From assembly GCA_024679065.1 (NCBI GenBank), contig JAGIQG010000016.1, forward strand, positions 12,462,001-12,526,000: DNA of 64,000 bases, given 5' to 3'. The notes under the pieces are model-generated. The model was given only the letters and a program-made list of their open reading frames with translations. It was not told where the DNA came from and did not search any database. A program made the translations under genes and the position numbers. The DNA comes from Sphyrna mokarran (lineage: Eukaryota). Below, in pieces: positions 2,730 through 58,310 of this stretch (position 1 is its first letter; each line of letters starts with the position of its first letter).

Positions 2730-3417
2730 ACATACTATCATTTGAGTTATGAAAGGAAACATGATCTGATGTATCAGAATAAGGAAAAAAAAAGTGACTG
2801 CGCTTGACAACAGGTATTACTTCAGTGGATAAGACATTAAGGAGCCCAAGAAGAATTGGATCAATGTGATTAAAGATAAACGACTTGACTATCACACATA
2901 ACTGTCAACTATAAATACTGTTATGCTGTTTGACATCAAAATCTGTTTTTGTGACATCAATGTAGGTACAGTCCTGGTGCCATGAGTTCCCTTTTGCATT
3001 CTCAGTGCTCATACTTCCATTATAATGTCACAAAAGAGAACTATTGCACATTATTCGTCATAATTCACATCAGTGTACAAGTGTAATAAGTTGTCATCAA
3101 TATCAAGGATAAGCACAGTTGACAATGACAGTAATGACACGAAAATTTCCTGGATAGATGACCAACATATACAGAAGAAAATTCATAAAATGTCCCTTGA
3201 GATTAAATATTATCGTTATCGCTGAATTCCATGCTATCAATGCGATTTGCCTTATGCCAGGAACAGAAATGTAGTAAAACAAAAATGAAGCTATAGGAAC
3301 AAATCAAAGGACTGAAAGCGTTTGGCAAAATAAAATCAATTTCTTTGTCATGAAATCGCGCACACCATCTCAAGGAGCAAGTCATGCTGATAGTATACTT
3401 TCTGATAGTATACTTAC

Positions 3418-3745
3418 CATTTGGCTGGATGAGTGCAGCAATGGCATTGTTCAAGAAAATCGGGAAAAATCCACCACAGAAAAAGAAGTTTGGTTGAACG
3501 GCTCCCATTCCAAAAACATTTGCTCCCATGACGACCGAAGTTGTGATTTCAATTCTGCATGGTGCAATTCCCGAGGTCGCCAAACTTTCCTTAACCAGCG
3601 TTTGCCAGAACTACGACAACAGCCAGCCTTAATTGGAAGAACAACATGGGAAGACCACCAACTGGACCTCCGCTTAAAATTGTCCTTACTGTTCTTTGAT
3701 AGGACACTGGAACTCACTGTACACAACATGGTGCAAAAACGTTCA
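3418..3745 (-). other. Candidate exon of an unidentified minus-strand transcript, ending ...CCAAATG|GTAAGT
   Basis: Minus-strand acceptor gtttttccattgttacatcctgcAG and consensus donor ATG|GTAAGT. More GC/CpG-rich than its flanks. No recognisable protein in any frame. Confidence 0.3.
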
Positions 3746-4167
3746 CTGCAGGATGTAACAATGGAAAAACGTCATCTCATGATTTCATATTCAAAGGTAT
3801 TACTGATAGTACATGAATGCTATCGTGGCCGTCGAATCGCATATCCCGCAAATCCATTACACATAATGCGAATTGCATCGTCTGACCAGAAATATTTATA
3901 TTGATGACTCAAATGTGAAGTCTTTCAATTTGATGTTTTTCTCCGAGGAATCCAGTTTGCCGATTGTCTCTCAAAATGCGGAAAAAAAAGGAAAATGTGC
4001 AACTTTGTATATTTAAACTCAGCGAATATGTAATCAATCTATATTGTCTTGATTTCAATAGTAAAATCGAAAAAGAAAATAATTCGAATGAATATTCATA
4101 TAGAACAAACGGTTTGTGATGGTTCTTTGTTCCGCTGAAAACAGTCAATCGGTGACTTTCTTGCCAC

Positions 4168-5160
4168 ATATATGAACATGCCGTGATAGAACAGAGAACA
4201 GGCCCTTCGGCCCTCGAAGTTGTGCCGAGCTTTGTCGAAAGCAAGATCAAGCTATCCCAAGCCCTGTCATTCTGTTGTGGTATATGTGACTATCCAATAA
4301 CCGATTGAATCTTTCTAAACTGTCCGAATCCACTGGCATAGCAGGTAGCCCATTCCACACCTCAACCACTCTCTGTATAAGGAACCTACCTCAGACATCC
4401 TTCGTATATCTCCCACCATTAATACCTACATCCACCAGAGTAAATAGTCGCTGAACGTCCACTCTATCTACCCCCTACCCCTCTCATGACCTTATAAATA
4501 TTTATTAAGTCGCCTGTCATCCTTCTCCGTTCTAAATAGAAAAAGCCCAAGCTCCTTCAAAGTTTCCTCATAAAACCTGCGCTTCAAATCAGGCAGCATC
4601 ATAGTAAATCTCATCTGCACTCTCACCAATGCTTCCACATCCTTCCTAGAATGAGGAGACCAGAACTGTTCACAATATTCCAAATGTGATCTCACCAAGA
4701 TCTTGTACGGTTGCAGCATAAACCCACGGCTCTTAAACACAAACACCCCTGTTAATAAACTCTATCACGCAATATGCCTTCTTCACGGTTATAAGCAGCA
4801 AGGTCACCACCTTCTGTGATCTGTGCATACGAACCCAGGTTATTCTGTTCCTCCATATTCCTCAGAACTCTGCAATTGACCCTTTAATCTGTATTCAAAT
4901 TTGTCTTACAATAATGGATCATCTCGCATTTATCAGGATTAAAATCCATTTGCCATTTTCCGACCACAAAACTGCATCCCATCAATATCACTTTTCAACC
5001 GACAGCAAGACTCCACCTCATCCACTACTCCAACAACCTTGGTGTCATCAGCAAATCTACTGACCCAGCTTGTAGCCCCCCTCCTCCAAGTCATCGAATA
5101 ATATCACAAATAGCAGAGGACCCAGCACTGATCCCTGTGGAACACCATGGTAACTGGTCT
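4168..5160 (-). mobile_element. CR1 LINE, 3' half of an older element split by a younger CR1 (continues at 6886-8690)
   Basis: Minus strand reads RPVT..VPQGSVLGP, FADDTK and LVRSHLEYCEQFWSP (ORF 4492-4746). The 3' tail GAGGGCCGAAGGGCCTGTTCT lies near 4200. Confidence 0.92.
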
Positions 5161-6885
5161 ACAAATGCGTGCATGGAATACACGTCCTTCGACCCAAAGA
5201 GCCCACGCAGTTATTCTATCATTGTGAGTGTACTCTTCTTCCTATGACCCTTGTCTACGCCTATTGGATTCCACAGTCAAGGAATCATAGAGTCATAGAG
5301 TCATAGAATCCGTACAGTGGAGAAAGAGCAAGAGAGAGGGACGACTACTTCAGGGACAATTTCTTACCACCACTTAGTCTAAGAGCACGTTTTGGGGATG
5401 TGGGAGGAAACCGGAGCACCCGGAGAAAACCCAACCGAGCACGGGGAGAAAGTGCAAACTCCTACAGACATTGGCCCAAATCCATGTATCTGTACAGCAA
5501 ACAATGAGTCACTGACTGTTTGTTGCCCGTCAGTGACCCAGTTTAAGCGTACACGAACGACGTGAAGGACTAGGCAACTCTAGAAGCAACATCCAAGAGT
5601 AGCCCTCGCACGACCCACCGTGTGTATGCACCCTGTTGGACAACAATGCGGACTGAATCACACGTGGATTAAAAGAAAATACATCAGTAAACATGCACAA
5701 CTTATACCAACATTCATGGAATCTCCAGAAACTCAGAATTAAGACAAGTGAGCCAAAAAATACGTTGGAAGGTCCGTAGGAATCAATTGATTCCTAGGCT
5801 CTTGATCTTTATTTACAACAGCCTCCTGTATCCCTCCAACTCTAGTCCGCTCACGTGCCTATCTAAGTAAACCTTAAACAACATTAGCATACCTGCCTCC
5901 ACCACCCTACTTGAGCAGTGCATTCCAGGCCCCCACAATCTTCTGTGTGAAAAAAACACCCTCTAACATCCGCATTATACCACGTCCCTCTCGCCCTAAG
6001 CCCGTGGGCCCTCGTAATTTTTGCATCCAAACTAGGAAAAAGTTTACCATTGTTCACTCCACCTATACGCGTCATTATCTCATACATCTCTACTAGACCT
6101 CCCTTCATTCTCCGTCTTTCTAAGGAGAACAGCCCGAATTTACTCAATCTCTGCTCATAGCTCAATTCTTCCATACCAGGCAACATCCTGGTAAACCTCC
6201 TCTGCACTCTTTCCAGCGTCTCCGCGTCCTTCCGGTAGTGACCTGACCAGAACTGAACGCAGTACTCCAAATATGGTCCAACCAACTGCAAAATTAGACG
6301 CCATATTTTATAATCTACACACCTTCCTATAAAGGCAAGCATACCATAAGACTTCTCCGCCACCTTCTCCATTTGTACTGCACCTTCAAGGGCTTGTGTA
6401 CTTCCACCCCTAGGTCCCTCTGCGTTTCTATTCTCTTAGTAGTCCGACCATTTATCATATAACTCACCCCTACATTATTTCTTCCAAAATGTATCACCTC
6501 GCATTTATCTGGATTAAATTCCATCTGCCATTTCTCTGCCCAATATAGCAGCCTATCTATATCATGCAGAATTGCTTGACACTGCTTCTCACTATCAGCA
6601 AGTCCAGACATCTTTGTGCCATCTGCAAACTTGCTGATCGCACCACTTACTCCCTCTTCCAAGCCATGTATGTATATTGCAAATAGCAAAGGTCCCAATA
6701 CTGAGCCCTCTGGCACACCGCCAGTCACAGACCTCCAGCTGGAAAAAAGACCCTTCCACCGCTACTCTCTGTTTCCTGTTACCAAGCCAGTTCTCCATCC
6801 ATCTAGACTCTGCCCTTTATCCCATGAGCCTTAACCTTTTCCACCAACCTACCATGAGGGACTTTGTCAAGTGCCTTACTGAAAC
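5161..6885 (-). mobile_element. 5'-truncated CR1 LINE with a long (~650 bp) 3' UTR containing a V-SINE-type core
   Basis: ORFs 6327-6728 (GVPEGSVLGPLLF, FADGTK, WQMEFNPDKC) and 5884-6372 (LEYCVQFWS, QRRFTRMLPG). The V core (GGGAGGAAACCGGAGCACCCGGAGAAAACCC on +) is at ~5395-5470. The UTR is colinear with 45048-45629. Confidence 0.88.
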
Positions 6886-8690
6886 TTCTCCATCCACTAC
6901 CACCATTTGTCTTCTTTGAAATAGACAATTACTTAACCAATCGCCAAAATTCCCTCGATCCCACACCTCTTTGCTTTCTTCATGAGCCTATCATGAGAAA
7001 CCTTATCAGACACCTTACTAAAATGCATGTATATGGCATCGACTACACTACATTCATTTACACACTAGTTGTCTCCTAAAATAATTCAATCAAATTTGTG
7101 AAACAAGACTTGCCCTGCACAAATTCATGTTGTCTATTTCAGATTAAGCTGCATCTTTCCAAAATGGACATAAATCCTATCCCTTGGGGCACTTTCCATT
7201 AACTCACCCATCACCAAATTAAGATGAAGTTTCCTATAATTTCCAGGGTCATTCTAATTTCGTTGCTTGAACAGAGGAACAACATTTGTCACTCTCCAGT
7301 CCCATGGCAATATCCCCATGGAGAGTGAGGACCCAAATATTAGAGCCAAACGCTCTGCAATCTCTTCCTTGCCTTACACAGAATCCTAGGAAATATTCCA
7401 TCTGGCCTAGGGGACTTATCAACCCTCAGGTTTCCAAAATTGCGAATACATTTTCCCACAGAACATTTACTTCCTCCAGCCTATCAACCTGTATCGCATT
7501 CTTATCCTCAGAAACAAGGCTTCTCTCCTTGGTGAAGACTGAAGTAAAATATTCATTCATCACCTTGCTTATCCCTTCCGACTCTATGCATAAGTTCCCA
7601 CCACTATCCTTGACTAGTCCTAACACTCACAGTGGTCATTCTTTAACTTCTCTCATTTTTTCTTGATCCGACCCGCCAAGGACTTCTCATGATCCCTCCC
7701 AGCTCTCTTAAACCCTTTTTTGGCTCATTCTTTCTTATTTTATAGTTCTCAAGCGACCTGACTGAACTTTGTTTTCTCATCCTTACAAAAGCTTCCTTTC
7801 TTCCCTCTTGGCAAGGCGTTCAACGTCATTTGCGAACCATTGCTCACTCACTCGGCCATTTCCTCCCCACGCCGCATAGATATACCTATCAAGGACAATA
7901 GTATTTATTCCTTGAACAAGCTCCACTTTTCATTTGTACCTTGACGTGACAGTTTCCATTCCCATATTATGCTTCCTAATTGTTGCCTAATCGTATCATA
8001 ATTACCCCTTCTCCAATTACAAAACTTGTTCTGCCTTATGTCCCTATCCCCCTTCATTGTAATAATGAAAGGTACCAAATTTTAGTTGCTATGTCCAAAG
8101 TGCTCTCCCAAGAGCAAATGTAACACTCGGCTGGGTTCATTACACAGTACCAAGTCCAACGTGGCCTCACCTCTTGTGAGGTGATGACACATATTGTGTC
8201 ATCAAACCCTCCTGCACAAAGTACAAAATTGCTCTATACCAACTATTCGACCTATGAAGGTTCCAATCGATATTTGGACAGTTAAAGTCACCCACGATAT
8301 CTACCTGTGACTTCCACACATATCAATAATCTGCTCTGCAATGTCCTCCTCCACATGCCTATCACTATTTGGGGGCTATAGAAAACTCGTAAGAACCCGA
8401 CGGTCCCTTTGTTTTATTTTCTCACTTCATATAATGATCTTATGTTACTCAGTCGGCAGGAAACCTTCGAAATGCCTTACAGTAGCCGTTAAAATATCTT
8501 TGATTAACAATGACACTCCTTCACCAATTTGCAAACTTCACTACTCTTACTGAAACGAACTTCCACCAACTATTTCTGTAACCTTTCTAACCATATCTCC
8601 GTAATGGCCACAACATTGTAGCTCCAAGTACTTATTCATTTATTACGGATGTACCTTGCATTGAAATGGACGCAATTTAACCCCTTTCCT
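6886..8690 (-). mobile_element. CR1 LINE, 5' half of ORF2 (endonuclease, linker, RT N-terminus) of the split older element
   Basis: Minus strand starts GLNCVHFNARYIRNK (EN start) near 8685. ORF 7426-7626 contains MNEYFTSVFTKE. The segment ends with RRQMVVVDGE at 6890. Confidence 0.9.
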
Positions 8691-13319: not shown

Positions 13320-14140
13320 TATGGTAATATGGTCAGCGTCTGATTTTTTTTTTGTGATTCGATATCCTAACTTAAAGAATTGGGCACAGTAAAATCAAAC
13401 TCCAGCCATGACAGACTTGATGAAAGTCAAATTTACAAAAAGATAGAAACATGTCTGGACCTGGCCCATCAATCACACATAAAAGATGCGCTACTCAGGC
13501 ATGACAGAAGATCACCGCACCCTATTGAAATGCATTGGCCTATTGTTAGAAACACAGATTGGATCAGACTTTCTGTCACCTAGAATTTCTTTTCGGGCAA
13601 CAAGTTACTAATAACAACAGCATGGAGGTAGACACCTGGGAACGAGGCCCAGCGTCCTATGAGATGGACATCAGTAAACCCACTGGGAATTGGGACCTCC
13701 CTCTGGAGATCTCATTGGACGGAAATCAGAGACATTTCTGGAAAGGGAAGCAAACAGGCATAAATGTAAACATCCCAGACAAAACAACAGAAAAGACTCC
13801 ACGAAGAAGTTCACATTTACCATCAGATATAAAGAAACGGGGGGGGGGGGGGGGGGGGGGTGTGAGTTGCCATTGAGATTCACTTTCGTGACGACGGACC
13901 AGAGAGACTCGAGGAATCGGACCTGCAGTTTAACCAAAACATTTTTGCTGTAATATACTTCAAACGGTGGGATCCTCTTTGTTGCATTTGGATAATTTAA
14001 TGGTTAATATTTCTATAACTAACGAACTTGTTAGATCTTTACTTTTATTTATTATTTGGCCATCTTGCAATCAACAGCGTTGGGATAGAACCTTCAGTAA
14101 GAAAACTGGTCGAAAGTATCTGAGAGTTACAGTTACAACA
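13320..14140 (+). repeat. 5' LTR
   Basis: Colinear with 26257-27072 (shared ATTGAAATGCATTGGCCTATT, CTGTCACCTAGA, CTCATTGGACGGAAA, GAATCGG.CCTGCAG). Starts TATGGTAATAT, ends GTTACAACA. Contains a G22 run at 13839-13860. Confidence 0.88.
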
Positions 14141-14141
14141 A

Positions 14142-14155
14142 TTGTCACCCAGACG
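14142..14155 (+). promoter_or_regulatory. Degenerate primer-binding site, most similar to tRNA-Trp
   Basis: TTGTCACCCAGACG immediately after the LTR end matches 11/14 to TGGTGACCCCGACG. Confidence 0.55.
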
Positions 14156-14481
14156 CTCCTTCGATAAGTAGTGATGTGTTGCTCCGAAGTCGAACACTCA
14201 ACGTGGTATTCTCCAACACTCCACTTGAGCCTAATTTAAGAGATTAGGTTGCCCCACACGACAGACTGTCTTCAGTGAGTGAATGATTAATACAGATGCG
14301 AATATTCAATTAGGCCATAAACCCAGTGCCTGTTTATGATTGCGAGGGGTACAAACTGTTGTTAGAATTAGGATAGGCAATTGAATTTGGGTAAAATCTA
14401 CGAAGGGAATGTACTGAACGCCGGGCCCTTACCGCGATGCTTTATTCACACCCACGGAACGAATCATAAAAATAAATAATT

Positions 14482-15060
14482 ATGGACAGTTATGCTGAAT
14501 GGGTTGAAGTTCTCTGTTTATGTTTGAATCATAATTGGCCGAAATATGTGAAGTAAGGTGATACCCCGAAACAGTATTTTGGATCAGAGGGAGAGAATTT
14601 ATGAAGTCATGACGATAAAGGAGTGAGTAAGAGGGCTATACAGCTCAGGAAGGCGATTACAATCGCCTGATGTCGAGAAAAGCGGAGATTATCCGTGTTA
14701 AACATGGCAGAGAGAAAACTGTAATTAGAGATAGACACACGGGAGGAAAGGAACCAACTTATTCCGATACACATGAACGAGTTCCAGTCTGAATGTGATA
14801 ATGCCCACCAAAAGGCAAAACGCACTGTCAGTGAGAGAAGGGCTGCGCTGTACAGTTGCAGGAAATTAATCATAGATGCAGTGACCTGTAAGCTGCACTA
14901 AATTTTTTTGCAACAAACAGGAAAACAAAATACTGCCCATGCAACATAACAATCGGAATGCCTGCGTGACATTGACGATTTCTAATCACAGCTAGCTATT
15001 CAAGGGCGTGCAAGTTGTGCATTCACCACCAAAACAGGGGGGTATGAGCCACGGGTACAG
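14482..15060 (+). pseudogene. gag: ERV gag remnant (matrix-like N-terminus plus coiled-coil region); capsid/nucleocapsid not seen
   Basis: Reads MDSYAEWVEVLCLCLNHNWPKY (C-x-WP as in retroviral MA), then a charged helical stretch with stops. Position is between PBS and protease. Confidence 0.5.
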
Positions 15061-15089
15061 TGGGGGGGGGGGGGGAATTTAGAAATCGG

Positions 15090-15440
15090 TGCCTGCAGTT
15101 ATGCAATGGTTAGCATCACTGTGACCGGGAATCCCTCCTCCGTTCACACTAATCAAAAAAAAAAGACACCACTCTAATCCTACATCCATTCCGGAAAACA
15201 AAGTTGCGCCCCTAATCTGCCTCTATCCCGGAGCACTCAGTATGGTATATTAACAGGGGGGCTTAGAAACAGACTAACTGGAACTTAGACTGGGTAATAT
15301 AATATGCCATCACCCAGCTATCTTGGTTAAAATCCAGCCAAAAACAGAACACAGTCTAGGGAACGATTTGATGACGAAATGCAAAATAATTGTATCCATC
15401 GAAGTGTTTTTTTTAGCTAGTAAGAAGTTGTAAATGTCCT
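15090..15440 (+). pseudogene. pro: ERV aspartic protease remnant
   Basis: ...ELRLGNIICHHPAILVKIQPKTEHSLGNDLMTKCKIIV resembles the C-terminal LGRDLL motif. The DTG active site is eroded. Confidence 0.6.
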
Positions 15441-15466
15441 GTCGAAGTGGGCTACCCCCAGGTAAA

Positions 15467-15602
15467 AAGAACAAAGAATGAAGAACAAAATAGCACAGGA
15501 AACAGGCCCTTCGACCCAACGAGCCCGCGCCGCCACCCCGATGTTCCCACCTCTACCCGTGATCCTTGCCCATGTTTATAGATCTATGGATTAAAAACCA
15601 AA
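15467..15602 (-). mobile_element. 3'-terminal fragment of the V-core-bearing CR1 family, inserted in the ERV pro/RT boundary
   Basis: Reverse complement closely matches 45498-45629 (GATCTATAAACATGG..GGGAACATCGGGGTGGCGGCGCGGGCTCGTTGGG.CGAAGGGCCTGTTTCC). Confidence 0.88.
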
Positions 15603-15689
15603 TATGAGGTATGAAGACCGAATTTCTACTTTTAAAGTATTCTGGATCAGGGAATAGAAATGACGGAGTATCCTGAAACAAAGATATAT

Positions 15690-17303
15690 TAGCTCAACAC
15701 ATAATGGCAATCACCAGTCGCAAGCATGACTGTGACGGAATAACAGGGGAGGTAATCAAAGAAGGACCTTACCCTAAATCCCAAAGACAGCACGGCTTCC
15801 ATAAACAAGCCGACGGGGAAGTGGTCAAGTTGTTTAGCGTTTTATTAAAACAAAGGCTTCTGCACTCCGTTGCTTCACCTAACAATCCTCCATTTGACCG
15901 TTAAGGTAACCACAGTGCTCCCGAACGTTCACAATTGATAATCAAGCCCTGACTCAGATCATCCCAATAGTGGTGACTAGCCCAGAAGCCATGATGAAAC
16001 AAGCCGTGCGTGCATTTTTTTTTTCAGTGTTGGACAACAGTAAAAGCTTCTGGTTAATTCGCTTAGATCATCACTGTGGACATATATTTGCCTTCATGTT
16101 CAAGACACAACAGTGCATTTGGACATGTTTATTACAATATTTTCATACCTTTCATTTTATATTTCACCAGCGCTTAGAAAGCTGCTTGTAGCGATTCTCC
16201 AAACCTGAACATTGATTCCAATGCGTAGACCATCTCCTCTTATAGGCTGCAACAAGGTAGGAACATCTCAAATTATTGGAGGAACTGCTGAACCACTCAG
16301 GACAATAAGGTTAAAGATAAATCCCTAGAAAGCCCAGATCATGAGACCATAGGTCTGCTACTTGGGTACAGGAGTGACTAAGCAGAACCACGAGATATTA
16401 ATAAGCAAGTAGAATCTGTAACACGCCTTCCTCTACAAAGAAAATGAGCTAGGTACACTACTTTCTCGGCTTAGTGAAGTACGAACATCGACGGTTTCGT
16501 CACTAAAGCCACTCCCCTGTCTGAACTTCTTTGAAAAAAAAAGGTCCAGACTATGCGACACACACAAGTAGTCTCAGAACTAAAACAATCCGTGGCACAA
16601 GCCAGTGCCTTTTGGATACTCAACCCTGAATTCCCCTTCGTCCTTGAAGTAATGGCCACTGATAGCACACTCGCCACTGAGCTCCTGCAACAATAGGACG
16701 GCTCAGCTCAATCACTTATGCTTCCCCCATACTCTGCGAGAACGATTTTTTTTTTTTTCCGGGAAATGCACGACTTTAGCTGTAAAGTCGGCTGGCACCC
16801 TTTCGTTGTACTTATTGAACACCCCTCCCCCGCTCAACTGCTCATTAACGGTCGAATTAAAGATGGGACGGTTAGTCAAAACTGTAGCATAGTGAACATT
16901 CATATCAGAGTATAGAGATATTCGAGCGAACATACTCGGCTCTCCGCATTCCTGGAAGGCAACGCAACTTATGGGTTCGAGTCTCATGAGTGCCAGGTTC
17001 TGGCAATAAAATACCCCAAGTGGCCTTTGTTTGCCAAAAAAAAAAAGATGAGAGGAGCCAGAGGAATCAGCCAAACCCAGGGTCAGGACAGTTTAAACAT
17101 TTTTTATAATGGGTCATCCGTGGTGAAAGACGCAAACAGGAGGACATGATGTGAGATATACACGGAAGACCAAGAAGCCAAGCCCCAAAGCGAGGTTGTC
17201 TTAAAACTTACACATGGATGCACAGACTGCAGAACTGGCAGCAATAGCATAGGTAGTCAGCCACCCTGAGCTGTGCCCCAGACATACACTCCAATAGTAT
17301 ACG
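15690..17303 (+). pseudogene. pol: ERV pol part 1: RT, tether (degenerate RNase H) and N-half of RNase H
   Basis: RT: KHDCDG; FSVLDNSKSFW..FAFMFKTQQCIWTCLLQYFH (ORF 15970-16191); QCVDHLLL (QYVDDLLL) at 16219-16242. Tether: PEFPFVLEVMATD...QLLINGRIKDG. RNase H: IFYNGSS at ~17099, AQTAELAAIA at 17220, IHSNS at 17284. Confidence 0.88.
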
Positions 17304-20300
17304 AACATGAAACCTTGGAGCAGGAATAGGCCATTTGTTCCCTCAAGATTGCTCCATCATTCAATAAGGCCATAGCTGATATTTTCATGAACTAGCTCTG
17401 CTTACCGACCCGCTCACCAGAATCCTCATTTGCATTGTTTGTCAAAAATGCATTAACTTTACTTCAAAAAAACATCCAATAGGTAGCCTCAACTCTTTCA
17501 TAGTGCACGGAATTCTACAGACTTACAACCCTTTGTGTGAATAAGTTCGTCATCAATTCAGTTGTAAACGTGCTCCTCCTTATTTTGAAACCATGCCCGC
17601 TACTTCTACTTTCACTCGCCAGTGGAAACGTTTTCCCTGCTTCTACCTTATCTATTCCCCACATCATCTAATACGTTTATAGATCCCCCCCCCCCCCCCC
17701 CCGCCCCCCCCACCACCACCACCCATTCTTCAGAATACAGGGAATAGAATCCCAATCTACTCAGTCTCTACTCATATGCCAAGGCTCTTAAATCATGAGT
17801 CAACTTAGTTAACCTTGTCCGCCATCTCCTGCCCCACACTCCGCCTCCGCCCGCCCCCATCTCCACCAATGCTGCTGAATTGTTCGTCTATCCTTTTTCA
17901 TGTAAGGAGAACAATACTGTACACAGCACTCCAGGTGTCACCTCACCAGCAAGTTATACAACTGCAACATAATCTCGTTGTTTTCAAGCTCCATCTCTCT
18001 TGCAATGGAGGACAATATTCCGTTTGACTTCTTAATTACCCGCTGTACCTACAAACAGATTCCTTGTGATATTGCATAAGATCTGCAGGTCTTTTGAAAG
18101 CAGAATGCTGCAATTTTTACCATTCAATTAGTAATTAATGTTGCTGTATTCTTACCAAAATAGATGACCTCACATTTACCAACATTGTACTCCATCTTCA
18201 GACTCTTGGTCACTCACTCAGATGATCTATATCTCTTTTCAGACTTTCATCTCTCCCTACACAGTTTGGCCTGCCACACATTTTAGTGTTATCTGTGAGT
18301 TTTGACACACTACACTTGGTCCACATCTCCAAATCACATATAAATCGTCGACTATTGTGGTTCCAACTGTAATTCCTGAGTCACACCACTAGTCACTGAT
18401 CGCCAAGCAGAATAACACCCATTTACTCACCCCTCACCTTGTTCTTTGTTAGTTAACCAATACTTTATCCATGTTAATGCCTGAACCGTAATACCATGCA
18501 TATGGATCTTATGCAGCAGTCTTTGTTGCGGCATCTTGTCAAATGTCTTCTGGAATTCCAGTTACACCACGTACACAGGTTTCCCATTATCCACTGCACA
18601 TGTAATGTTCTCAACGAACTCCAACAAATTAGTCAAACATGACTTGGCCTTCATGAGCCCACGCTGCATATTACCAATGGGACATTTTTCTTTGTCTAAA
18701 TATGTCACTATTTTTTTCTTGAGGATAAATTAATGCATTTTCCTTAATAGGGAAGTTAAACTCACTGGCCTATTGTCACCTGCGTTTTATTTATGCCATT
18801 TAAAAAAGAACTAACAACAGTGTAACATTTTCTGTTTTCTGAGTCCAGCGAATTTTGGTAATTTTCCCCGAATGCATTTGCTATTTCCCCTGCCATCTCT
18901 TTCAGTACCACGGTACCTTTCGTCAGGACCAGGACACTTGACGACATTTGAGCCCCATTAGCTTGCCCAAACCTAACTCTTCCACGATACTGATCATGAT
19001 TAGGTCTTCGCCAACCACAGCCTTCCTGACACCAATTTTTGTCAAGTTACTTGTGTATTCCACTGGGTAGAGAGATTCAAAATACCTATTCAATGGCTCA
19101 GCATTTTCTCTTTTCCAGTTCTTGCATCCCCCTTCTCATCCTCTAAATGACCCATGTTTCTTTAGCCACTCTTCTTCGTTTTATATATTTGTACAAAGTA
19201 ATGCCATTTGTTTTGTATTGTGAGCCAGTTTACTCTCGTGTTCCAATTTATTGTTCTTTGAATCTTTTTTCCGTGGCTTTCTGCTATCTTTTAAAAATTC
19301 CCCAATCTTCTAATTTCTCCTAATCTTTGTCACTTTGCGTGCCTTTTTTTCTTTCAATTTGATACTCTATTTCCTTAGGTATCTATTGTTGTTTATCTCA
19401 TTTTCTCCAGTCTTTCCTTACCATCCGTACATACTTTGCTGAACAATGTGAAAGATAATTTTGAATGTCCTCTAACTGTTCCTCAGTTATCCCAACAAAA
19501 TTTTTGTTCCACTCTACTTTTGCCAACGCCTCCTTCATCCCTTTATAGTCTTCTTTGTTTAAGCACAAAACACTGGAATTGACTTTCCCTTCTCAGGCTC
19601 CATCTTTATTTGAATTCAATCAGACTATGATCGCTTCTTCCGAGAGGATCCCTAACTGTAAGACCATTAATTATTACTGTCACATTGCACAGGACTAGGT
19701 CAAGGATAGCTTGCTCCCTCGTAGGTCCCATTATATACTATTCAAGGAAGATATCGCGGGAACATTCTATGATCTTCTCAAGGCTGCATTGACCAATCTT
19801 GTTTGGCCAATTGATAAGTAGATGAACACTGCCCCCACCCCCCGCCATGATAACTGCTATACTAGTTTTGCATGCATCTGTTATTTCCATGTTTGTTTCT
19901 CACCTCACTGCCTTGTCATTATTTGATGGCCTAGAGACTATCCCTATCGATGACGTTTTATCCTTGTCATTTCTAATTTCCACCTAAATGGATTCAAAAA
20001 TATTTTCTGCAGAATCTTTATCATCTCTCATTGATACCATCCTTAAATAGCAGAAATGCACCTGCTCCATCAGTTTTCAAGTCTGTCTCTCTGAACAGCT
20101 TGATATCTCTAGGTATTTAACTCCCAGTCGCGGTCATTCTGCAATCGTGTCTGTACAATGGATGCCAAATCATTTAATTTCGCAATGCTTCGTGTTGTCA
20201 ACTCATTCATCGTGTTTTGAATGATAAGGGCATTCAGATAAAGTTCCCATATGTTTGTTTTTTGTATTTTTTTATATCCTATTAACAACTGATTTCTCCT

Positions 20301-21606
20301 TTCTTCTATCTTTTTCCCCCTGATTTTTTGTGCAGTTGGAGCTGTTCCCCATGTTTTGTCCTTGCTCCCTCCTTCTCGGGCTCCTTATATAAATTCCTAT
20401 CCCGTTGCACATTAGTTCAAACCCTTCTCAAACGCTCTAGCATGCACTCACATAGGATATCTGTCCGAGCTCTGCACACGTCTAGCCCGTCAAATTTGTG
20501 CAGGTCTCACCTCCCCAAAACTCATTCCAATGCCCCTGATACCATCTCTTCAGCCAGGTAGTTATCTGACGTATCCTGACATTTCTACTCGACTCTGACT
20601 TGAACTTGACAACAGCATTACTGCTGAAATCGCTACTTTTGAAGTCCGATTTCTTAACATTCTTCCTTGCTCCCTACGTTTTGCTTTTCGGATCGCATCT
20701 ATTATTTTTTTGTCCTCTCCCTTCAGAATGTCCAGCAGCCGCTCTGATGTATCATAGACCCTAGTACCAGTGAGGCATCGTATCATCCTGGATTCCCGTT
20801 TGCAACCACAAAGATACGTCTGCCTATTCCCCTTACAATTGAATCCCTAGTAATATTACACTAGCAAATGTGTTTTATCCTTTTCCTCTGCAACATTACC
20901 AATTATGGTACACGGAATTTGACTGCTGCTGCTTTCCCTGGAGACGTCATCCCCCTTAACAGTATCCAAAGCTGTATATCTGTTTTTTCAGGGGAATGAC
21001 CACAGGAGACTCCAACACTACCTGCCTATTTCTCTTGCTCTGTCTGATGGTCACCTATTTGCTTCCTGCTGCGGAGTTTGATACTGCTGCTTGACCACTC
21101 TCTAAATGTGCTATCCTCCATACTCTTAGATTCATGGATGCTCCGCAGCATCTCTAGTAGCTGGTGCAGCTCTGAAACTCAAGCTTCCAGGAGCTGTAGT
21201 TCAAAACACTTTCTGCACACGCGCTGATGCAGGAGTTTGCAATTGGCCACAGGTTGCCACAAGTGACAAGAGTAGGTGGAGCAAACCACAGCTTGGAGCT
21301 CTCTTGCCATGACTTACCCTTCAAATTAAACTTTTGAATGATGTTTTGTTCGAGGTTATATCTAATGTTCTAGGGTCCTTCCTTCCTTTCCTTGTTACAA
21401 CCAAACATAACCATTTGAAAGCATAACCAGAAAAATTAAACAGAAATAATATTCTTATGTACAACAACAAAAACTACAATGCCAAGAGCAAAAGGGAAAA
21501 AAAAAACTTTTTGATTAATCAACACTCTTACTTGTAGCCTCTGCTGCCTAAAACCATGCGTTCACCCACATCCAAATGCAGTCGTCTCAGCCAAGCAGCA
21601 ATCAGG
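17304..21606 (-). mobile_element. Near full-length CR1 LINE (5' UTR, ORF1 with Cys-rich N-terminus and SGNH-esterase-like domain, ORF2 EN-RT, 3' tail), degraded
   Basis: ORF1 start MARELQAVVCST at 21310 (minus). RCLTGTRVYDTSERLLDILKGE in ORF 20562-20786. EN at ~19550-20230 and RT at ~17500-18950. The tail ..GGCCTATTCCTGCTCC..CATGTT is at 17304-17345. Confidence 0.92.
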
Positions 21607-21930
21607 ACGTATGTCTGCAACAGTTTAACGGACTTCGTGCCAAGATGAGGAGCAAGGACATAAATATCAGCAGAAGAGAAACCTCTGTCATTAGCCTCAC
21701 TGTTAAGTTTTATTTTCCAGACTCCTGACCACAGGTATGGTACAATTAAATTAAAGTTTCACCACGGCACCTTCCCAATTGGGAACATAAGAGCGGGTGA
21801 ATTAGCCAGCCAGGGTGCTCGAGAGGGGTTTTACTTTTGGCATCTAATAGCTAAAGAGCGAATTGAAGTTTTGAATGTTAGCCAGACCAAGGAGGGATAC
21901 ACCCCTCCTCCTTTGAACATTAGCGAGATG
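21607..21930 (+). pseudogene. pol: ERV pol part 2: C-half of RNase H
   Basis: TYVCNSLTDFVPR*...SAEEKPL...IKLKFHHGTFPIGNIRAGELASQGAR matches DS-x-YV ... KVKAH ... GN-xx-AD-x-LA. Confidence 0.8.
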
Positions 21931-22240
21931 TTCTTGTCCTTAAGGACGGCCTATAGCACGAGGGGACACAGGTTTAAATTAAGGGGTATGAGTTACAGGA
22001 CGGATATCAGAGATAGGTTCTTTACTCAAAGAGTGATTAGGGAGTGGAATGCCCTGCCTGCAGCTGTTGTAGATGCGCCACGTTTGGTGGCGTTTAAGAG
22101 GTTAATTGCTAAGTATATGGAAGAGAAGGGAATGGTTTAGTTTGGAGGGGCATTGCTTTTTATTTTGGTCGGCACAACATCGAAGGCCGAAGGGCCTGTT
22201 CTGTGCTGTATTGTTCTATGTTCTATGTTCTATGTTCTAT
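21931..22240 (+). mobile_element. Young CR1 3' fragment inserted between ERV RNase H and integrase
   Basis: TRGHRFKLRG..FFTQRVIREWNALP, then GGCCGAAGGGCCTGTTCTGTGCTGTA and a (TTCTATG)n tail. Confidence 0.93.
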
Positions 22241-23300
22241 ATGTGACCTCGAGCAGAGAACATGACCAGATCGATCTCCAAAACGACGATGTCCAGAGCC
22301 ATCGCGGCCAGGAACCACAAATGAGCGCATCAAAGTATTGTGCGGTTCTCAAACCTAGAACATTGTGTGTGGCATTATGCTGATAATTGCATCATCTGTG
22401 CACAGAACAATCCCGACAAATCTACCTACACAGGCGAACTGAGGCATACTTGCCCTGTGGAAAGACCCCGGACTAATTTCAAATTGGTTCTATTGGGCTC
22501 CTCCCTCCGGAATGCGACTTTACAAATACATCCTGGTCATTGTAGACACTTTCAGTAACTGGTGGACACTTCTTCAACCCGCACGAGCACGGTCAAATTC
22601 ACGGCTAACATCCCAGTGCAGTACATATTCAGTCATTGTAACCTGCCACGCAGCATCGACTCGGACGAAGGCACTCACTTCATTGCAATGGTAATGCAAG
22701 GGGTAATGAAATAGTTCAGGATAAATTAGCAATTCCACTTTGTTTACCACCACCAAAAACAGCGGTGTGTTGGAGAAGATAAACTGTACCGTAAAAGGTA
22801 GGATCTTTAAGACCATTCAGCAGAACAATCAAACCTGGAACAATGTCGTCCTCTTCTTATTAATGAGAGTGCGCAACTCTGTATCTATTTCCACTGGATT
22901 CACGCACCGGGTCCTCGTGATGGGGCGATCCTTGCGAGAAATTGAACGTTTATTCGGGCTGAACATGTCCGGGTCCGAGTTCACGGCCCGCACTCAAGAC
23001 AATGTCGTGAGAGCATCCTTGACAGCATACAGAACCGCACAACGGGATGCAGCCGTTAAGAAAGGGAAGGGGAAGCAGCAAAATAACGCCTACTTTGACG
23101 AGAAGGTGAAGTTCTTCGAATATGAGATTGGACAAGAGATAATGCTCAGTGTCTTCCAGGCTGGTAAGTTCCAACCCCCCAAGTAAGCCGGACCCTATCC
23201 AGTGGTAAATAAGACCAGTCCCTCTGAACACAAGGTCAGAGTAGACTACAAGAAAACCAGTTTGCATCTGGTCAACCAAATGAAGGCATTCGGCTCCCAG
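22241..23300 (+). pseudogene. pol: ERV pol part 3: integrase (HHCC, DDE core, GPY)
   Basis: HRG...NCIICAQNNP; YKYILVIVDTFS; IDSDEGTHF; SGVLEKINCTVK (ORF 22740-23186); PK*AGPYPVV; HLVNQMKAF. Confidence 0.9.
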
Positions 23301-24450
23301 CAAAATTTTGACCAATACGGCGTTACCCTGGAAGGAACCATTGAGGAACATGGGATCCTCAACCTCACCACATCCCACTGGACCTTAACCGCAATCCACA
23401 ATCTGTAACAGAGGTTATTGACCCCCAACCAGAACTGCAGGACCGGCACATACATCCTTGGTTCCCACGCTAATTTAAAGGGCTTCAGGAATAAAGCCAT
23501 GACCTAGGGCAACCCAACTCAAAGGATGGGGCACCAGCAGGCCTTCCCCAACACGACGTGCTTGGCAATCAGACTCCCAGAACCGTTTGACCCAGCTCTC
23601 ATTACCAGAGGTGCTAACACCGAGGGCGTCTGACAATAAAAGCCCTCATACTTTGGTTCCCTCAACTAAGGAAGTATCATGGCATCAACGTCCAAGCTGT
23701 AAATTGTTTCATCCACTCACTCCACGCATCACCTAATCGAAAACGGCTTCTTGTCTATCCACATTATACTGCACCATAATAATCTGACACATTTCAGTTT
23801 GGCTGTGCCTTGAAAAATCTATTTTTATACTGTCCCATAGTTCTTCAACGACAGGGACACGTGCCACAGACCCAACATATTATTTTCACCTTGTGCAAAT
23901 TCCTTACTCCACTCAACCGCATAAAACACTGATTGCCAACGAAACCTTTGCATGACACTAGGTATTAATACGAACTGAGAGGTGCTACCTAGATCTCTCC
24001 CTGAATGAACTACATATCTACATATACTTATCTGCTATCCGATATATCTCGTCGTGGATAGAACCACAGACACCACACCAACGGAAGACTAGACTATGAG
24101 CCTCCGATACACCGGATACGAGCAAATTTGAGGGTTGCATCCTGTAGTATACCCCAAAACGAGTGTCACATATACGTGTAACAACCAAAAAGTGATCTAC
24201 AAGGAAGTTAATAAGAATTCTCATTATTGCTCCCCAATGACAACCCTCGCTCGTGATTGTTGGCTTACACTGACTATGGATATATAGAGCTATCCTGTCC
24301 AACCATAAAAAGAGGCATGAAATTAGGAACAAAGTGTCCCGGTAATGTTATTCAGAACGTTACATATACTACGAAATTAGGAAATCGTTAAGACCAACTG
24401 TTAGCATACCAATGCGTATTTTTCGGAAACCACCACAAGGCACCACAAAT

Positions 24451-25950
24451 GGGTTGATACCAAATCATATAGGGAAAATATTATTCGACAACATTCACTA
24501 CAAATTGGCACCAGTAGTGGTAGACTTAGCTGGAACACAATGATCAGACTGGTGTGCCTCCCCGCTTGTAAAATGGTCGCTCCAATTGACCCAAAGACCA
24601 CTAAGCTGAAAGCTTGGGACACACGAGGAAGGATAGACGTCCAGATCAAAGGACCACAATATGAGGGAAATCCCTAATGATATGGTGACGGCATATGGAG
24701 CGGGACAATCCACCATTAACACACTTGATCTGGCTGATTTGGATAACTTGCTGAGAGTCCTAACACACCAAGTTAAAGAGGCATTAGACCCCAAACTAAA
24801 TGGAACTGCTCGTCAACATGCTGAGAAAGATTTAGCTGAGAACAGTACCAGTTTCCTTCTGGTTTCTGTACCAAAAGGAGGTGCCAAAGTATTAATCACG
24901 TCTTTGACGGAAAAATGAGGATGATGCCAGACAATAGAGCCGAACCCTGTGTAGCATTTATGGGCAATGGATGATCGAGCACTTTAAACAAAACTTCGAT
25001 CATGTTCGTAGGAAGTAAGTTCTATCCGGGAAGAATGGCAAACAGGTTGAAAATCTATACCATGTAAAAATACACTCCAATATCACTAACTGTCAGTTAC
25101 AGCAACAGAAAAGGTTTGGTCTATCGATAGCGTTGGAGGAACCCCGGGGATCGCATGAGGATGGTGTTTGGGATTCCAGAAGCACTAAAAGATAAGGTAG
25201 GGTTGAGATTATTTGAAACAAAAATATTGGAATCAGTAAAGGGGGATATGGATTCAGAAAGGAGGGTGGTTTACAAAGCAGGTTAGCTCGTAGGCACCAA
25301 CCTGTGGATGTGTAAACATAGACAAAGTTGTCCTGTGCCCATATCCGATGTATAAAAATGAACTTGCACTGTGTAGATTCAGGACAACTATTGACTTAAA
25401 CTTTACACGGGAAATTCGAGTTTTAGAAAGGACGTTCACCGGCAGGTTACAATGGGGGGTGGGTGGGTGGGGAGGGGGGAGGGTAGACTACTGTATTGCA
25501 ACGTCGCCAGAAAATTGCCATTCTTCGACAGCCATTTGCAATATCCACAATACTGCATTTTACATTAAACCACACGTTCCCGCCAGGATAGAATTGAGGT
25601 AGTGAACATATAAAGAAATGTTAGTAAGGAATTGGGACAAAGCTTGACGGAGCACTTTGCAAACAAAAAATATATCGGGATCACACTTCTACCCGAAAAA
25701 CGTCAAGAATTTCGGACTCAATCACAGCAGACACGACCTTTGTCAAAATAGCACAATAAATGTTTTTTTTTTAAAGAACATTAGTGCAATTAGAATCATA
25801 TATGGTGGCAGGATTTCGGGTATTGTGGTTCCAATGTCCAAATCCATCCATAGGTCCGCATGTTGTCACCCATGGCCGTAATAAGAATCCTACTTATGAA
25901 AGTGTACCTACCGGTTCTCGTGTTTAAATTTGCTCAACAGAAAAAATGAA
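24451..25950 (+). pseudogene. env: ERV env remnant (class I fusion protein); may begin further upstream (~23400)
   Basis: GLIPNHIGKILFDNIHYKLAPVVVDL. Eroded cleavage site, then fusion-peptide-like EIPNDMVTAYGAGQSTINTLDLADLDNLL (ORF 24661). Cys-rich CSIYGQW, VLCPYP, YCIAT..C..C. Membrane-proximal HIWWQDFG..HP followed by a hydrophobic anchor at ~25860-25930. Confidence 0.72.
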
Positions 25951-26239
25951 TTTCTCCAACACTTGAACATGTCAACGGTCATCCAACATCGGGAATGTCC
26001 AAACAATAAAGTGCTTTTATACTCGCCCATCTATATTGTAATATGTTCAGTCATTTGTTATTTTGTACTGTTCATTGCTTTGATTTGTATTTACCCAATT
26101 GACGTTTCTTTTATTGTTTTTTTCTTCATTTCAATTTGTTACAATCATTATGGGTTAGAATGACACTGTCAAGCCTGGTATTGATTGCTTGTTGAGATGT
26201 TTTGGTGAGGGTTGTGTATCCAGTTCGCTGATGCTCAAT

Positions 26240-26256: not shown

Positions 26257-27072
26257 TGTGCTAATATAATCAGGGCCCAGTTTTAAGTCAGATTATTTGG
26301 ATATCTTGAAAAAAAGAATTTGACATGTCAAAATCAAACATTATCAGAACTCACTTATGTCTGAATTGGTAAAAGTCAAATATACAAAGTCACAAACATG
26401 TCTGCGTGAGGCCCATCATCACATATCAAAGATAAATGCACTCTACTGCAGGTGTTCATTGCAGCCCATTGAAATGCATTGGCCTATTTTCAGAAGTCCA
26501 TATCAGTCAGACTCTCTGTCACCTAGATTTCCTGCGGTTACCTTATCTGACAAAATGTCATGTATAAGCAACAGAATGGGGAGCGGGCCTCAGTGCCGGT
26601 TAGGCAGATATCAATTACCCACTGGGTATTGGGACACCTCTTCCCGAGACCTCATTGGACGGAAAGCAGAGATGTTACTGGAAAGGAGAGTAAGCAGTAG
26701 GATAAAGGTAAACATTTCAGGCGTACCAGCAGTGAAGACTCGATTTTAGTGACATTATAACCATCCGGAAAATTGACCAGAGAAGGAAGGAAAGCAAAAG
26801 CTGCCATCGAAACTTACCGTCTTGACGATGGTCCAGAGGGACTCAGAGAATCGGGCCTGCAGATTAGCCAGACTTTTTTGGAGTTTCGTATACTTGAATC
26901 TGGAGTATCCTCCTGTTTAATGTGGGTAACTTATAGTTGAATCAGGCTTTTAGTAATAAACTTATTCGTGTTTACTCGTACTTATCCTTGCCCATCTTGC
27001 AATTAAAGACACCAGGATAAAAGTTTGAGTCAGTAAACTGGTTGAGCGGATCTGAGATTTAAAGGTACAAGA
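26257..27072 (+). repeat. 3' LTR
   Basis: Starts TGTGCTAATAT and ends GGTACAAGA. Colinear with 13320-14140. AATAAA at 26955-26960. Confidence 0.88.
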
Positions 27073-45047: not shown

Positions 45048-45629
45048 TTAAATGACCATATGCGGCAACGTAAGCGAGTGACGGGTACAGAAAACTGATT
45101 TAAAATAGGGATCATGAGCCTTGGGAGTCCCTGGGAAGTGTGTAAATAGATGACGATATTGATGTATTTGTTTTTATCCTACAGGTACTTTGGTCCACCT
45201 TGTTGTCTAACGAGGGGCAAACACGCGATGGGTCGTGAGAGGACTGCTCTTGGATCTTTTTCGAGAGTGTCCTACTGCTTCACGTTGTTAGTGTATGCTT
45301 GACCTGGACCATCTGATAGGCAACACAAGAGCTCAGTGACTATCGCTGTGCATGGATTTGGGCCTGTGTCTGTGGTAGTTTGCGCATATTCCCCGTGCTT
45401 GCGTGGGTTTTCTCCGGGAGCTCCGGTTTCCTCCCACATCACAAAGATGTGCTTTTAGGCTAATTCGCAAAACAAATTCTCCCTAAATTGTCTCAAATTT
45501 GGTTTTTAATCGATAGATCTATAAACATGGACACGGATCGCGGGTAGAGATGGGAACATCGGGGTGGCGGCGCGGGCTCGTTGGGCCGAAGGGCCTGTTT
45601 CCCGTGCTGTTTTGTTCTTTGTTCTTTGT
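45048..45629 (+). mobile_element. CR1 3' fragment: last ORF2 codons plus long 3' UTR with a V-SINE core and (GTTCTTT)n tail
   Basis: Colinear with the reverse complement of 5161-5870. V core GGGTTTTCTCCGGGAGCTCCGGTTTCCTCCCACATC at ~45405. Tail GGGCCGAAGGGCCTGTTTCCCGTGCTGT. Confidence 0.85.
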
Positions 45630-51949: not shown

Positions 51950-52327
51950 AGAAGGTTCAAAGCAGAACCATATTGAAACATATAAGATGATTAGAGGTTT
52001 AGATAGGGTGGACAGTGATAGTCTTTTTCCTAGGATGGAGAAAGCTAGCACGAGGGGACATAACTTTAAATTAAGGGGTGGTAGTTATAGGACGGATATC
52101 AGAGGTAGGTTCTTTACCCAGAGGGCGGTTAGGGTATGGAATGCCCTGCCTGCGGCGGTTGTAGATACGCCAAGTTTGGTGGCGTTTAAGAGGTTAGTAG
52201 ATAAGTTTATGGACGAAAAGGGAATGGTTTAGGTTGGAGGGTCATTGCTTTCTCCTAATTGGTCGGCGCAACACCGAGGGCCGAAGGGCCTGTTCTGCGC
52301 TGTAATCTTCTATGTTCTATGTCCTAT
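51950..52327 (+). mobile_element. Young CR1 3' fragment
   Basis: Open ORF2 C-terminus (51987-52232, TRGHNFKLRG..FFTQRAVRVWNALP) and GGCCGAAGGGCCTGTTCTGCGCTGTA..(TTCTATG)n tail. Confidence 0.94.
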
Positions 52328-57678: not shown

Positions 57679-58310
57679 AGAGTCCTGGAATTACAGAATC
57701 ATGGAGGTTTATGGCCTGGAAATACACACCTCGGCCTTACTTGTCCATCCCACTCTTTTCTTTTTAAACCGCGAAGCTGGTCCCAATTGCTCACAATTGG
57801 GCCATATCCCTCAGTGTCCATTTACTCGTGTAACTGTCTAAACCACATTTTAAGACAATATATTTCCAAGTCTGTTGCTATTTGTTACCTTGTTCCAGAC
57901 ACTCGCTATCCTCTGTGTGGATAAAAAAAAAGTCCCTCTGGACACTTTTGCGTCTCGCCCCTCTCACCTTAAATCTGTTTTAGGCTGCCTTACCTTGGGA
58001 AAATATGTTGACTATCCAGTTGACCCATACAACGCATTATTTTATATACCTCCATAAGATCGTCTATTTTATCTCTGAGATAAAACAGCTTATCCCCCTT
58101 CCTGGATGAGAAGGGAATGGTTTAGTTAGGAGGGGCATTGCTTTTTATTTTGGTCGGCACAACATCGAAGGCCGAAGGGCCTGTTCTGTGCTGTATTGTT
58201 CTATGTTCTATGTTCTATGTTCCTCAAAGTGTAGCGGCCAAATCTGGACTCCCAGGCGATCGCGGCGCCTACAGTATGCATTTAGCCTCTTGTCAGAATG
58301 TTATAAGTTT
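57679..58310 (-). mobile_element. Old CR1 3' fragment hosting a young insertion
   Basis: Tail AGAATCATGGAGGTTTATGGCCTGGAAATACACACCTCGGCC and CCTCTCACCTTAAA (FKVRG). The sequence continues past 58224. Confidence 0.72.
58104..58219 (+). mobile_element. Very young CR1 3' tip with probable 5-bp TSD (TTCCT)
   Basis: About 110 bp nearly identical to 22125-22236. TTCCT at 58099-58103 and 58220-58224. Confidence 0.9.

Follow-up and report, generated by a model that had tools for sequence, protein, structure and literature searches.

An ancient, decayed provirus, probably snakehead-retrovirus-like, interrupted by three nested repeats

Layout and decay of the provirus

The window (the whole stretch of DNA analysed, 64,000 nucleotides) carries on its plus strand a decayed provirus of 13.7 kb, or about 8.9 kb after subtraction of three nested repeats. 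It is flanked by a pair of LTRs in direct repeat, and the domains of its pol follow the order reverse transcriptase (RT), tether, RNase H, and integrase. Its parts are as follows.

13355..14140, plus strand: 5' LTR; left edge uncertain (about 13335-13390), right edge the CA at 14140
14141..14160, plus strand: putative primer-binding site, decayed, placed by its position adjoining the LTR end
14400..15050, plus strand: probable gag remnant, by position only
15050..15420, plus strand: protease remnant; left edge set by eye, with P0131 aligning from its residue 10 onward at 15254
15471..15608, minus strand: short nested repeat between protease and RT; inverted copy at 45492-45629, 92% identical
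15610..16560, plus strand: SnRV-like RT, with stops, frame changes, and a degenerate catalytic motif
16560..16900, plus strand: tether (degenerate first RNase H); Pfam RT_RNaseH_2 E 0.011, clade profile E 2e-10
17090..17300, plus strand: RNase H, N-terminal half, in three frames; tblastn with P0002
17304..21608, minus strand: nested LINE, near full-length and antisense (4.3 kb), presumably CR1-type; splits RNase H
21610..21835, plus strand: RNase H, C-terminal half; P0002 E 2e-17, P0004 E 4e-5, Pfam RNase_H E 0.12, clade profile E 1.5e-5
21925..22241, plus strand: second nested LINE piece, a 3' end with a TTCTATG tail, between RNase H and integrase
22245..23300, plus strand: broken integrase (zinc finger, core, C-terminal GPY); P0004 tblastn E 1.5e-28, clade profile 67 bits
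24100..25960, plus strand: probable env remnant, by position, open-frame cover, and motif scan; class not assigned
26295..27072, plus strand: 3' LTR, left edge uncertain; direct repeat of the 5' LTR

Local alignment of the two LTRs spans 767 columns, with 71% identity across aligned columns and a K2P distance of 0.37; its score of 585 compares with a maximum of 80 among 50 shuffles, and blastn of the 5' LTR against 26.3-27.07 kb gives 66.6% over 751 columns (E 1.6e-42). No target-site duplication was recognisable at the LTR ends. The LTRs are unusually diverged: the K2P value of 0.37 stands against 0.033 in CmiERV lineage I, and dated shark ERVs range from 0.024 to 0.033, so that this provirus shows about 11-15 times the divergence of the two dated elephant-shark proviruses. 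The shark rate assumed by Han (2.2e-10) would imply an LTR age of about 840 million years, which is impossible, and a mammalian rate (2.2e-9) one of about 84 million years; neither was adopted.

Stops and frame changes run through pol, in which eight successive tblastn pieces show seven frame changes, two of them falling across nested repeats, and the acidic residue is gone at three of the four RNase H catalytic positions. This copy probably makes no working protein. The LINE that splits RNase H has a minus-strand Pfam RVT_1 match (E 9.2e-8) and tblastx matches to other LINE pieces within the window, and the second LINE piece is 86% identical to 52046-52327 and 98% to 58103-58222, with tail repeats seen. 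Among the 37 ORFs outside the provirus, Pfam matched a single one, a LINE RT, and Rfam and tRNA gene searches of the window found nothing.

Motifs and domains of pol

All RT, tether, and RNase H motifs listed in a first-pass annotation of this DNA are present in the sequence. The RT motifs LDNSKSFW (16030-16053) and QCIWTCLLQYFH (16111-16146) share one frame, and the tether motif PFVLEVMATD lies at 16634-16663; the RNase H motifs IFYNGSS (17099-17119), AQTAEL (17220-17237), HSNS (17287-17298), YV (21610), and GNIRAGELA (21781-21807) are spread over three frames, with the 4.3-kb insertion between them. The GPY motif of the integrase is read at about 23190. Matches of Pfam to the window's own frames remain below the curated cut-offs (RVT_1 E 0.068; RT_RNaseH_2 E 0.011; RNase_H E 0.12, profile positions 70-140), but three further lines of evidence indicate that the motifs exceed chance. 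A phmmer search over 1.84 billion proteins returned five matches (best E 1.6e-14). One of these five, the relative P0002, has a full Pfam RNase_H domain (E 2.9e-20) and aligns collinearly on either side of the RNase H insertion, with residues 13-187 on 16775-17261 (E 1e-19) and residues 204-312 on 21610-21924 (E 2e-17). Finally, a clade profile combining P0005 with named proteins of frogs, coelacanth, and bowfin was searched against all six frames of the whole window; it scored 97 bits on the RT, 30 bits on the tether (E 2e-10), and 13.5 bits on the C-terminal half of RNase H (E 1.5e-5), with no match to the N-terminal half. By tblastn, the RT region is matched by the close relatives P0001 (E 5e-47) and by P0131 (E 2e-39; 63% identical over 177 columns). 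A word-based search with the integrase frame gave 356 candidates, none at E 0.001.

The catalytic D-A-S of Gypsy, present in three of three Gypsy controls, is missing from the tether in intact relatives too. The first-pass annotation was right to read a retrovirus with tether plus RNase H in preference to Gypsy; its use of the dual RNase H as the mark of a basal lineage has to be abandoned, because this arrangement is common to all retroviruses.

Affinity with SnRV and competing readings

In a 33-row RT tree, the window, P0131, and P0001 formed a subclade (100/98) nested among frog and coelacanth sequences in a clade of 14 rows (95/98), which fell with the canonical retroviruses (100/98) and apart from lokiretroviruses and Gypsy (Metaviridae); a 27-row mixture-model tree agreed on the canonical side (98/96), with only 83/96 for the frog/coelacanth clade. 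The trees left out SnRV, foamy, ERV-L, ERV4, Odin, and class II sequences, and the canonical side of the RT trees consists of class I and fish/amphibian ERV rows only, with class I labels assigned by motif and, for the bird and hagfish rows, partly assumed. For RT, AU tests rejected grouping the window with Gypsy (p 6e-7), with lokiretroviruses (p 0.002), and with class I (p 0.003), which excludes class I (gamma/epsilon) membership. The RNase H tree is poorly resolved, with weak support (86/88) for a position of the window and P0002 next to class I and teleost rows and outside the frog/coelacanth rows, and the integrase tree leaves the window integrase unplaced. Profile bits for this clade, lokiretroviruses, and Gypsy were 97/21/8 for RT, 30/none/none for the tether, and 67/40/24 for integrase, bearing in mind that the clade profile drew on a larger and more diverse set of sequences than the loki profiles did, a difference that may inflate its scores.

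The SnRV label itself rests on counts of matching RT positions (51 residues, 16024-16176, compared by eye with published rows, one row per group), which clearly favour SnRV: 28 for SnRV, 17 for WDSV, 15 for SFV, and 12 each for Loki-Lch, HERV-L, and AciFLERV, with 25 for CmiERV scaffold 2, translated by eye. The intact relatives of the window carry LDISNGFW and LPQGFH in common with SnRV and CmiERV lineage I, an empirical marker without formal definition. Considering the RT tree, the AU rejections, the profile scores, and these counts together, we regard the provirus as very probably an ancient, dead SnRV-like ERV (clade Huo, or class III in the broad sense), which was the first option of the first-pass annotation (class III/snakehead-like). 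It has the RT motifs and retroviral layout of SnRV; it differs in being dead and interrupted, and the likeness is read from pol rather than from env, gag, accessory genes, or the priming tRNA.

SnRV-like ERVs have been known from a cartilaginous fish since 2015, when CmiERV lineage I of Callorhinchus milii was found to group with SnRV (Han 2015, PMC4422223). That lineage shares with the window, by eye, SnRV-like RT motifs (25/51), tether, RNase H, and a GPF/Y integrase tail, and at 9.6 kb it is close in length to the roughly 8.9 kb here. However, the env of CmiERV scaffold 2 is gamma-type, with an ISD and a CX6CC that were not seen in the window, and no LTR similarity is visible by eye. The earlier description of an elephant-shark SnRV-like lineage with these RT motifs largely refutes the first-pass idea of a basal lineage by the annotation's own standard, although the window copy is not of the same family, judging by LTR and env region compared by eye. 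The frog and coelacanth ERV Pol proteins (P0004, P0006-P0010, P0012, P0013) share its RT clade, domain order, and both RNase H families, but belong to other subclades, with about 35-40% identity to the window's decayed RT. They are annotated "NYNRIN-like" or "Gypsy integrase-like", names that we dropped as guides since loki and SnRV-like proteins carry them alike.

The most serious competitor, although an unlikely one, is a separate unnamed deep lineage among the non-class-I/II retroviruses, tied to SnRV only loosely. The window, P0131, and P0001 do form a well-supported subclade of their own, the RNase H falls apart from the frog/coelacanth rows, LTR and env region are unlike those of CmiERV scaffold 2, and SnRV- and Ovex1-related ERVs are still to be classified (Chong et al., PMC4299795). 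On the other hand, the window nests in the 14-row clade with amphibian and coelacanth ERVs, whose RT motifs are common to SnRV and CmiERV lineage I, and SnRV-related ERVs often swap env. ERV4 of crocodilians and turtles is likewise a non-class-I/II retrovirus, but it is without a GPF/Y motif after integrase (Chong et al., PMC4299795), and the GPY of the window integrase sets this copy outside it. A foamy-like endogenous virus (clade Tu, spuma), also proposed in the first-pass annotation, appears improbable. Such ERVs have been reported from sharks, the env-like region is long and looks non-gamma, and among solved structures the RT comes closest to foamy Pol (E 3e-5, against 1e-3 for MLV). For P0002, 2lsn and the 7kse/7ksf Pol chains rank ahead of MLV-type RNase H, and we take these leading structures to be foamy; we know of no SnRV structure in the PDB. 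Nevertheless, the RT matches SFV at 15 and AciFLERV at 12 of the 51 positions against 28 for SnRV, by eye, and Pfam gave no match to a foamy Env or a foamy Gag, although such a match might be masked by decay.

A lokiretrovirus, the remaining first-pass option, is very improbable and would extend that group to cartilaginous fish for the first time; the lokiretrovirus screen found none in six chondrichthyan genomes, in line with the host range given in the annotation. Lokiretroviruses (PMC7947760) share the tether plus RNase H, the tether GRIKDG resembles GRLKDG of Loki-Xtr, the database name "NYNRIN-like" is used on both sides, and the env-like region looks non-gamma. Their RT motif and clade are different, however: at the site occupied by LPQGFH in the window's relatives, 24 of 24 published Loki RT rows show PFGY/PFGL; P0024, used as a loki row, has the motifs of Loki-Lca/Pma. 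AU tests rejected the grouping in RNase H (p 0.008) and integrase (p 0.022, a weak result) as in RT, and loki profiles score far lower, missing tether and RNase H. Odin retrotransposons (PMC9040795) also have tether plus RNase H, but they are without env, come from sea anemones, and probably differ in RT motif and clade; their RT is sister to Loki, a branch off which the window RT lies in the 33-row tree. Least credible of all are a Tat-like reading, in which a Ty3/Gypsy element carries an additional RNase H, and a reading as unrelated fragments joined by chance. The sub-threshold Pfam scores would suit either, but the RT AU test speaks against Gypsy, the window lacks the Metaviridae arrangement of RT with one catalytic RNase H directly after it, and the LTR pair and single relatives collinear across all domains and across the LINE speak against a chance join. 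The provirus very probably adds to a group already known from shark, coelacanth, and frog genomes, and is neither a new basal lineage nor a lokiretrovirus.

Gag and env regions, and the history of the element

The gag and env identities of the remnants are probable assignments. Pfam found no match in the gag region, whose open-frame cover showed no excess (114 of 200 controls were equally high), and tblastn with 15 related Pol or Gag-Pol proteins gave no plus-strand match in either region. The env-like region, one of seven regions tested, has an open-frame cover of 0.86 against 0.56 in controls (0/200). Pol itself failed this test. About 430 codons separate a possible fusion-peptide stretch (about 24670) from a possible anchor (about 25870), and the motif scan found no gamma-type ISD or CX6CC, so that the region looks non-gamma. 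A C-x8-C ... ALC spacing at 25306-25360 recalls Loki-Xtr Env by eye. No match to Pfam, PDB, or Atlas was accepted, single matches to a Bdbt-like TPR (E 0.018) and MXRA8 (E 1) being dismissed as chance, and a single-sequence fold of 25294-25599 reached a pLDDT of 34. Pfam showed no Env like paramyxovirus F (PF00523), though decay could hide one, intact Loki Env itself reaching only E 2e-7.

The element would have originated as an enveloped retrovirus of standard LTR-gag-pro-pol-env-LTR layout that was reverse transcribed, with RT acting as polymerase, the tether serving as a structural link, and the C-terminal RNase H supplying the nuclease. It would then have entered a vertebrate germ line by integration, the host probably being a cartilaginous fish, with the copy subsequently decaying neutrally and receiving three later insertions, one of which splits RNase H. 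It is conceivable, though we consider it rather doubtful, that the provirus represents an undescribed SnRV-like subfamily of cartilaginous fish, with a long, cysteine-patterned env of the foamy/paramyxovirus-F class, that integrated far before any dated shark ERV. An F-like env would then exist on a third retroviral branch, beside foamy and Loki, and would be favoured as the ancestral retroviral envelope; the provirus would also offer an old calibration point, provided that orthologous copies are common to sharks or rays.

Every major vertebrate lineage harbours clade Huo (Xu et al. 2018, PMC6001957). In the coelacanth, the source of many named relatives of the window RT, SnRV-like elements form the main ERV class; in cartilaginous fish most ERVs belong to clade III, with 2,843 clade III RT loci in six genomes. 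The locus is one more decayed clade-III/SnRV-like copy of this commonest cartilaginous-fish ERV type, and neither widens the lokiretrovirus host range nor fills the gap between Gypsy and retroviruses. Its age and its env region could make it useful, as they bear on the timing of SnRV-like infection of fishes and on the envelope type carried by early retroviruses.

Structure of the Provirus and Its Two RNase H-Derived Domains

The provirus, correctly spotted by the first-pass annotation, is real. It spans 13.7 kb, or about 8.9 kb minus three nested repeats, with the following features.

Main features of the provirus (window positions)
~13355-14140 and 26295-27072, + strand: LTR pair, direct repeat found by alignment
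15471-15608: short nested repeat
~17304-21608, antisense: nested LINE splitting RNase H, with its own RT (E 9e-8)
21925-22241: nested LINE 3' end, with copies elsewhere in the window
24100-25960: env-like region

The LTRs are 71% identical over 767 aligned columns (K2P 0.37), with an alignment score of 585 versus at most 80 in 50 shuffles. Their similarity extends about 50 bases left of the TG expected as the LTR start. Protease, RT, tether, RNase H, and integrase follow in that order (15254-23300) and are spanned by single related proteins, with seven frame changes across eight aligned pieces of pol; a putative gag is placed by position alone. Long G, T, A, and C homopolymer runs occur at 13839-13860, 15061-15075, 16750, 17030, and 17686-17710, some of them coinciding with frame changes, and may represent either true slippage or assembly errors.

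All motifs named by the first-pass annotation were found where it had located them: those of RT in a single frame (16030-16146), that of the tether at 16634-16663, and those of RNase H in three frames (17099, 17220, 17287, 21610, and 21781), flanking the 4.3-kb insertion. Because they are too decayed on their own, the window's frames remained below Pfam cut-offs (RVT_1, E 0.068; RT_RNaseH_2, E 0.011; RNase_H, E 0.12). When 16481-17218 was searched against 1.84 billion proteins, five matches were obtained (best E 1.6e-14), one of which, the unnamed protein P0002, has a complete RNase_H domain (E 2.9e-20) and aligns collinearly with the window on either side of the insertion. The dual architecture is therefore real. 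It had been taken as the mark of a basal lineage, a reading that does not hold: a tether derived from a Gypsy-type RNase H, together with a newly gained RNase H, is established as common to all retroviruses and Loki/Odin elements (PMC7947760, PMC9040795), and thus separates the element from Gypsy while being silent on basal position. The tether of intact relatives lacks the catalytic D-A-S motif, which Gypsy controls retain, so that its degeneration is a family trait and not merely decay of this copy.

Phylogenetic Position

Relatives were drawn from two protein searches (120 of 474 hits listed in one, 116 in the other). Among the matches listed, the named proteins that came closest are Pol of frog and coelacanth ERVs, annotated as "NYNRIN-like" or "Gypsy integrase-like" (NCBI/UniRef). 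Since proteins with RT motifs equal to published lokiretrovirus (Loki) rows bear the same names, these are not decisive. RT trees were built from 26 and 32 of 239 stored proteins (named representatives and close unnamed kin, without SnRV, foamy, ERV-L, or Odin rows), the second omitting seven near-duplicates present in the first. In the 32-protein tree, the window RT grouped (100/98) with two unnamed proteins, P0131 (63% identity over 177 columns) and P0001, and this group was nested in the frog/coelacanth clade (95/98, but only 83/96 with 26 proteins). P0131 lies nearly at the node joining the window (branch 0.015 vs. 0.6); a little-changed natural member of the family therefore exists in public data. 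The hagfish protein P0189 grouped with class I ERVs (99/96).

The proposed retroviral rather than Gypsy affinity was confirmed, as the window RT lies with the canonical retroviruses, apart from Loki and Gypsy (100/98), and its placement in Gypsy was rejected (AU P 6e-7). A lokiretrovirus identity, also proposed, was contradicted by AU tests for RT (P 0.002), RNase H (P 0.008), and integrase (P 0.022). Placement of RT in class I was likewise rejected (P 0.003). Of the phylogenies that the first-pass annotation had called for, that of RT gave a position inside the frog/coelacanth clade, but the RNase H tree (18 rows) was poorly resolved and linked the window to class I and teleost rows with weak support; the integrase tree (17 rows), also poorly resolved, left it unplaced. 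Profile searches agree with the tree placement: the frog/coelacanth clade scored 97 bits for RT (Loki 21, Gypsy 8), 67 for integrase (Loki 40, Gypsy 24), 30 for the tether (no match with Loki or Gypsy), and 13.5 for the C-terminal half of RNase H (Loki none), the N-terminal half being missed.

The foamy and snakehead retrovirus (SnRV) options were compared by eye with the RT alignments published by Wang and Han, one row per group. Over 51 residues (16024-16176), the window matched SnRV at 28, WDSV at 17, SFV at 15, and Loki-Lch, HERV-L, and AciFLERV at 12 each. The suspected foamy likeness does exist, foamy Pol being the best PDB match of RT (E 3e-5 vs. 1e-3 for MLV), but it is shared; we take this match to reflect which structures have been solved and not closest kinship. 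By the residue count, the snakehead-like option is favored. CmiERV scaffold 2, an elephant shark provirus translated by eye, matched at 25 of 51 residues; Han grouped its lineage with SnRV (PMC4422223). The provirus is very probably a new, decayed SnRV-like (clade Huo) ERV, its formal membership being provisional.

Insertions, Decay, and Age

The LINE at 17304-21608 (− strand) is near full-length but decayed, with RT and a cysteine-rich ORF1-like stretch near 21300; as it sits inside the proviral RNase H, it is younger than the provirus. LINE 3' ends tailed by TTCTATG occur at 21925-22241, 52046-52327, and 58103-58222. The 98% identity between the copies at 22118-22237 and 58103-58222 places activity of this family much later than the provirus. 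Fragments akin to the nested LINE lie at 2380-8180, including a Pfam RVT_1 match (6327-6761), and at 61580-63560 (tblastx). We take the nested LINEs to be of the CR1 type, which is typical of cartilaginous fish. No host genes were detected within the window.

An SnRV-like enveloped virus would have integrated into the germ line, and the provirus would then have decayed neutrally and taken up three insertions. In this copy, RT has a degenerate catalytic motif, RNase H has lost the acidic residue at three of its four acidic positions, and pol is broken by stops, frame changes, and one LINE; this copy is therefore a fossil. Its LTR divergence is 11-15 times that of Han's two dated proviruses. It converts to an impossible ~840 million years at the shark rate assumed in Han 2015 (PMC4422223), with which it is incompatible, versus ~84 million years at a mammalian rate, so the LTRs do not fix the age.

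The env-Like Region and Known Elements of Cartilaginous Fish

The env-like region has an open frame above controls (0/200 as high), as one of seven regions tested; pol failed the same test. It had no match in Pfam, PDB, Atlas, or the related-protein searches, and a motif scan found neither a gamma-type ISD nor CX6CC. Visually, its length and cysteine pattern recall Loki Env and, through it, the foamy/paramyxovirus F class, a lead unsupported by any search; no account of an F-like SnRV-type Env was found in the papers searched. The ~800 bases between integrase and this region (23300-24100) may leave room for an accessory gene or env leader; no open-frame excess over controls was found there.

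SnRV-like ERVs were described from elephant shark in 2015 (PMC4422223), clade Huo is present in all major vertebrate lineages (PMC6001957), and most ERV RT loci in cartilaginous fish belong to clade III (2,843 clade III loci in six genomes). The first-pass annotation was right that these fishes were not among the Loki hosts first listed, with none of six chondrichthyan genomes positive (PMC7947760), and no later report appeared among the literature matches listed. Further comparison literature comprises PMC12440569, PMC4299795, PMC4977317, PMC10699275, PMC11089739, PMC13709493, PMC11468914, PMC8922424, PMC3747384, and bioRxiv 10.1101/2021.11.23.469661 and 10.1101/2024.03.17.585361; the supplements of these papers may tabulate shark SnRV-related ERVs and Env types. 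CmiERV scaffold 2 has a gamma-type env and an LTR divergence of 0.033, unlike the present provirus, which is therefore of a distinct family. The group to which it very probably belongs is a known one, and the novelty left in the provirus lies in its highly diverged LTRs and its env-like region.
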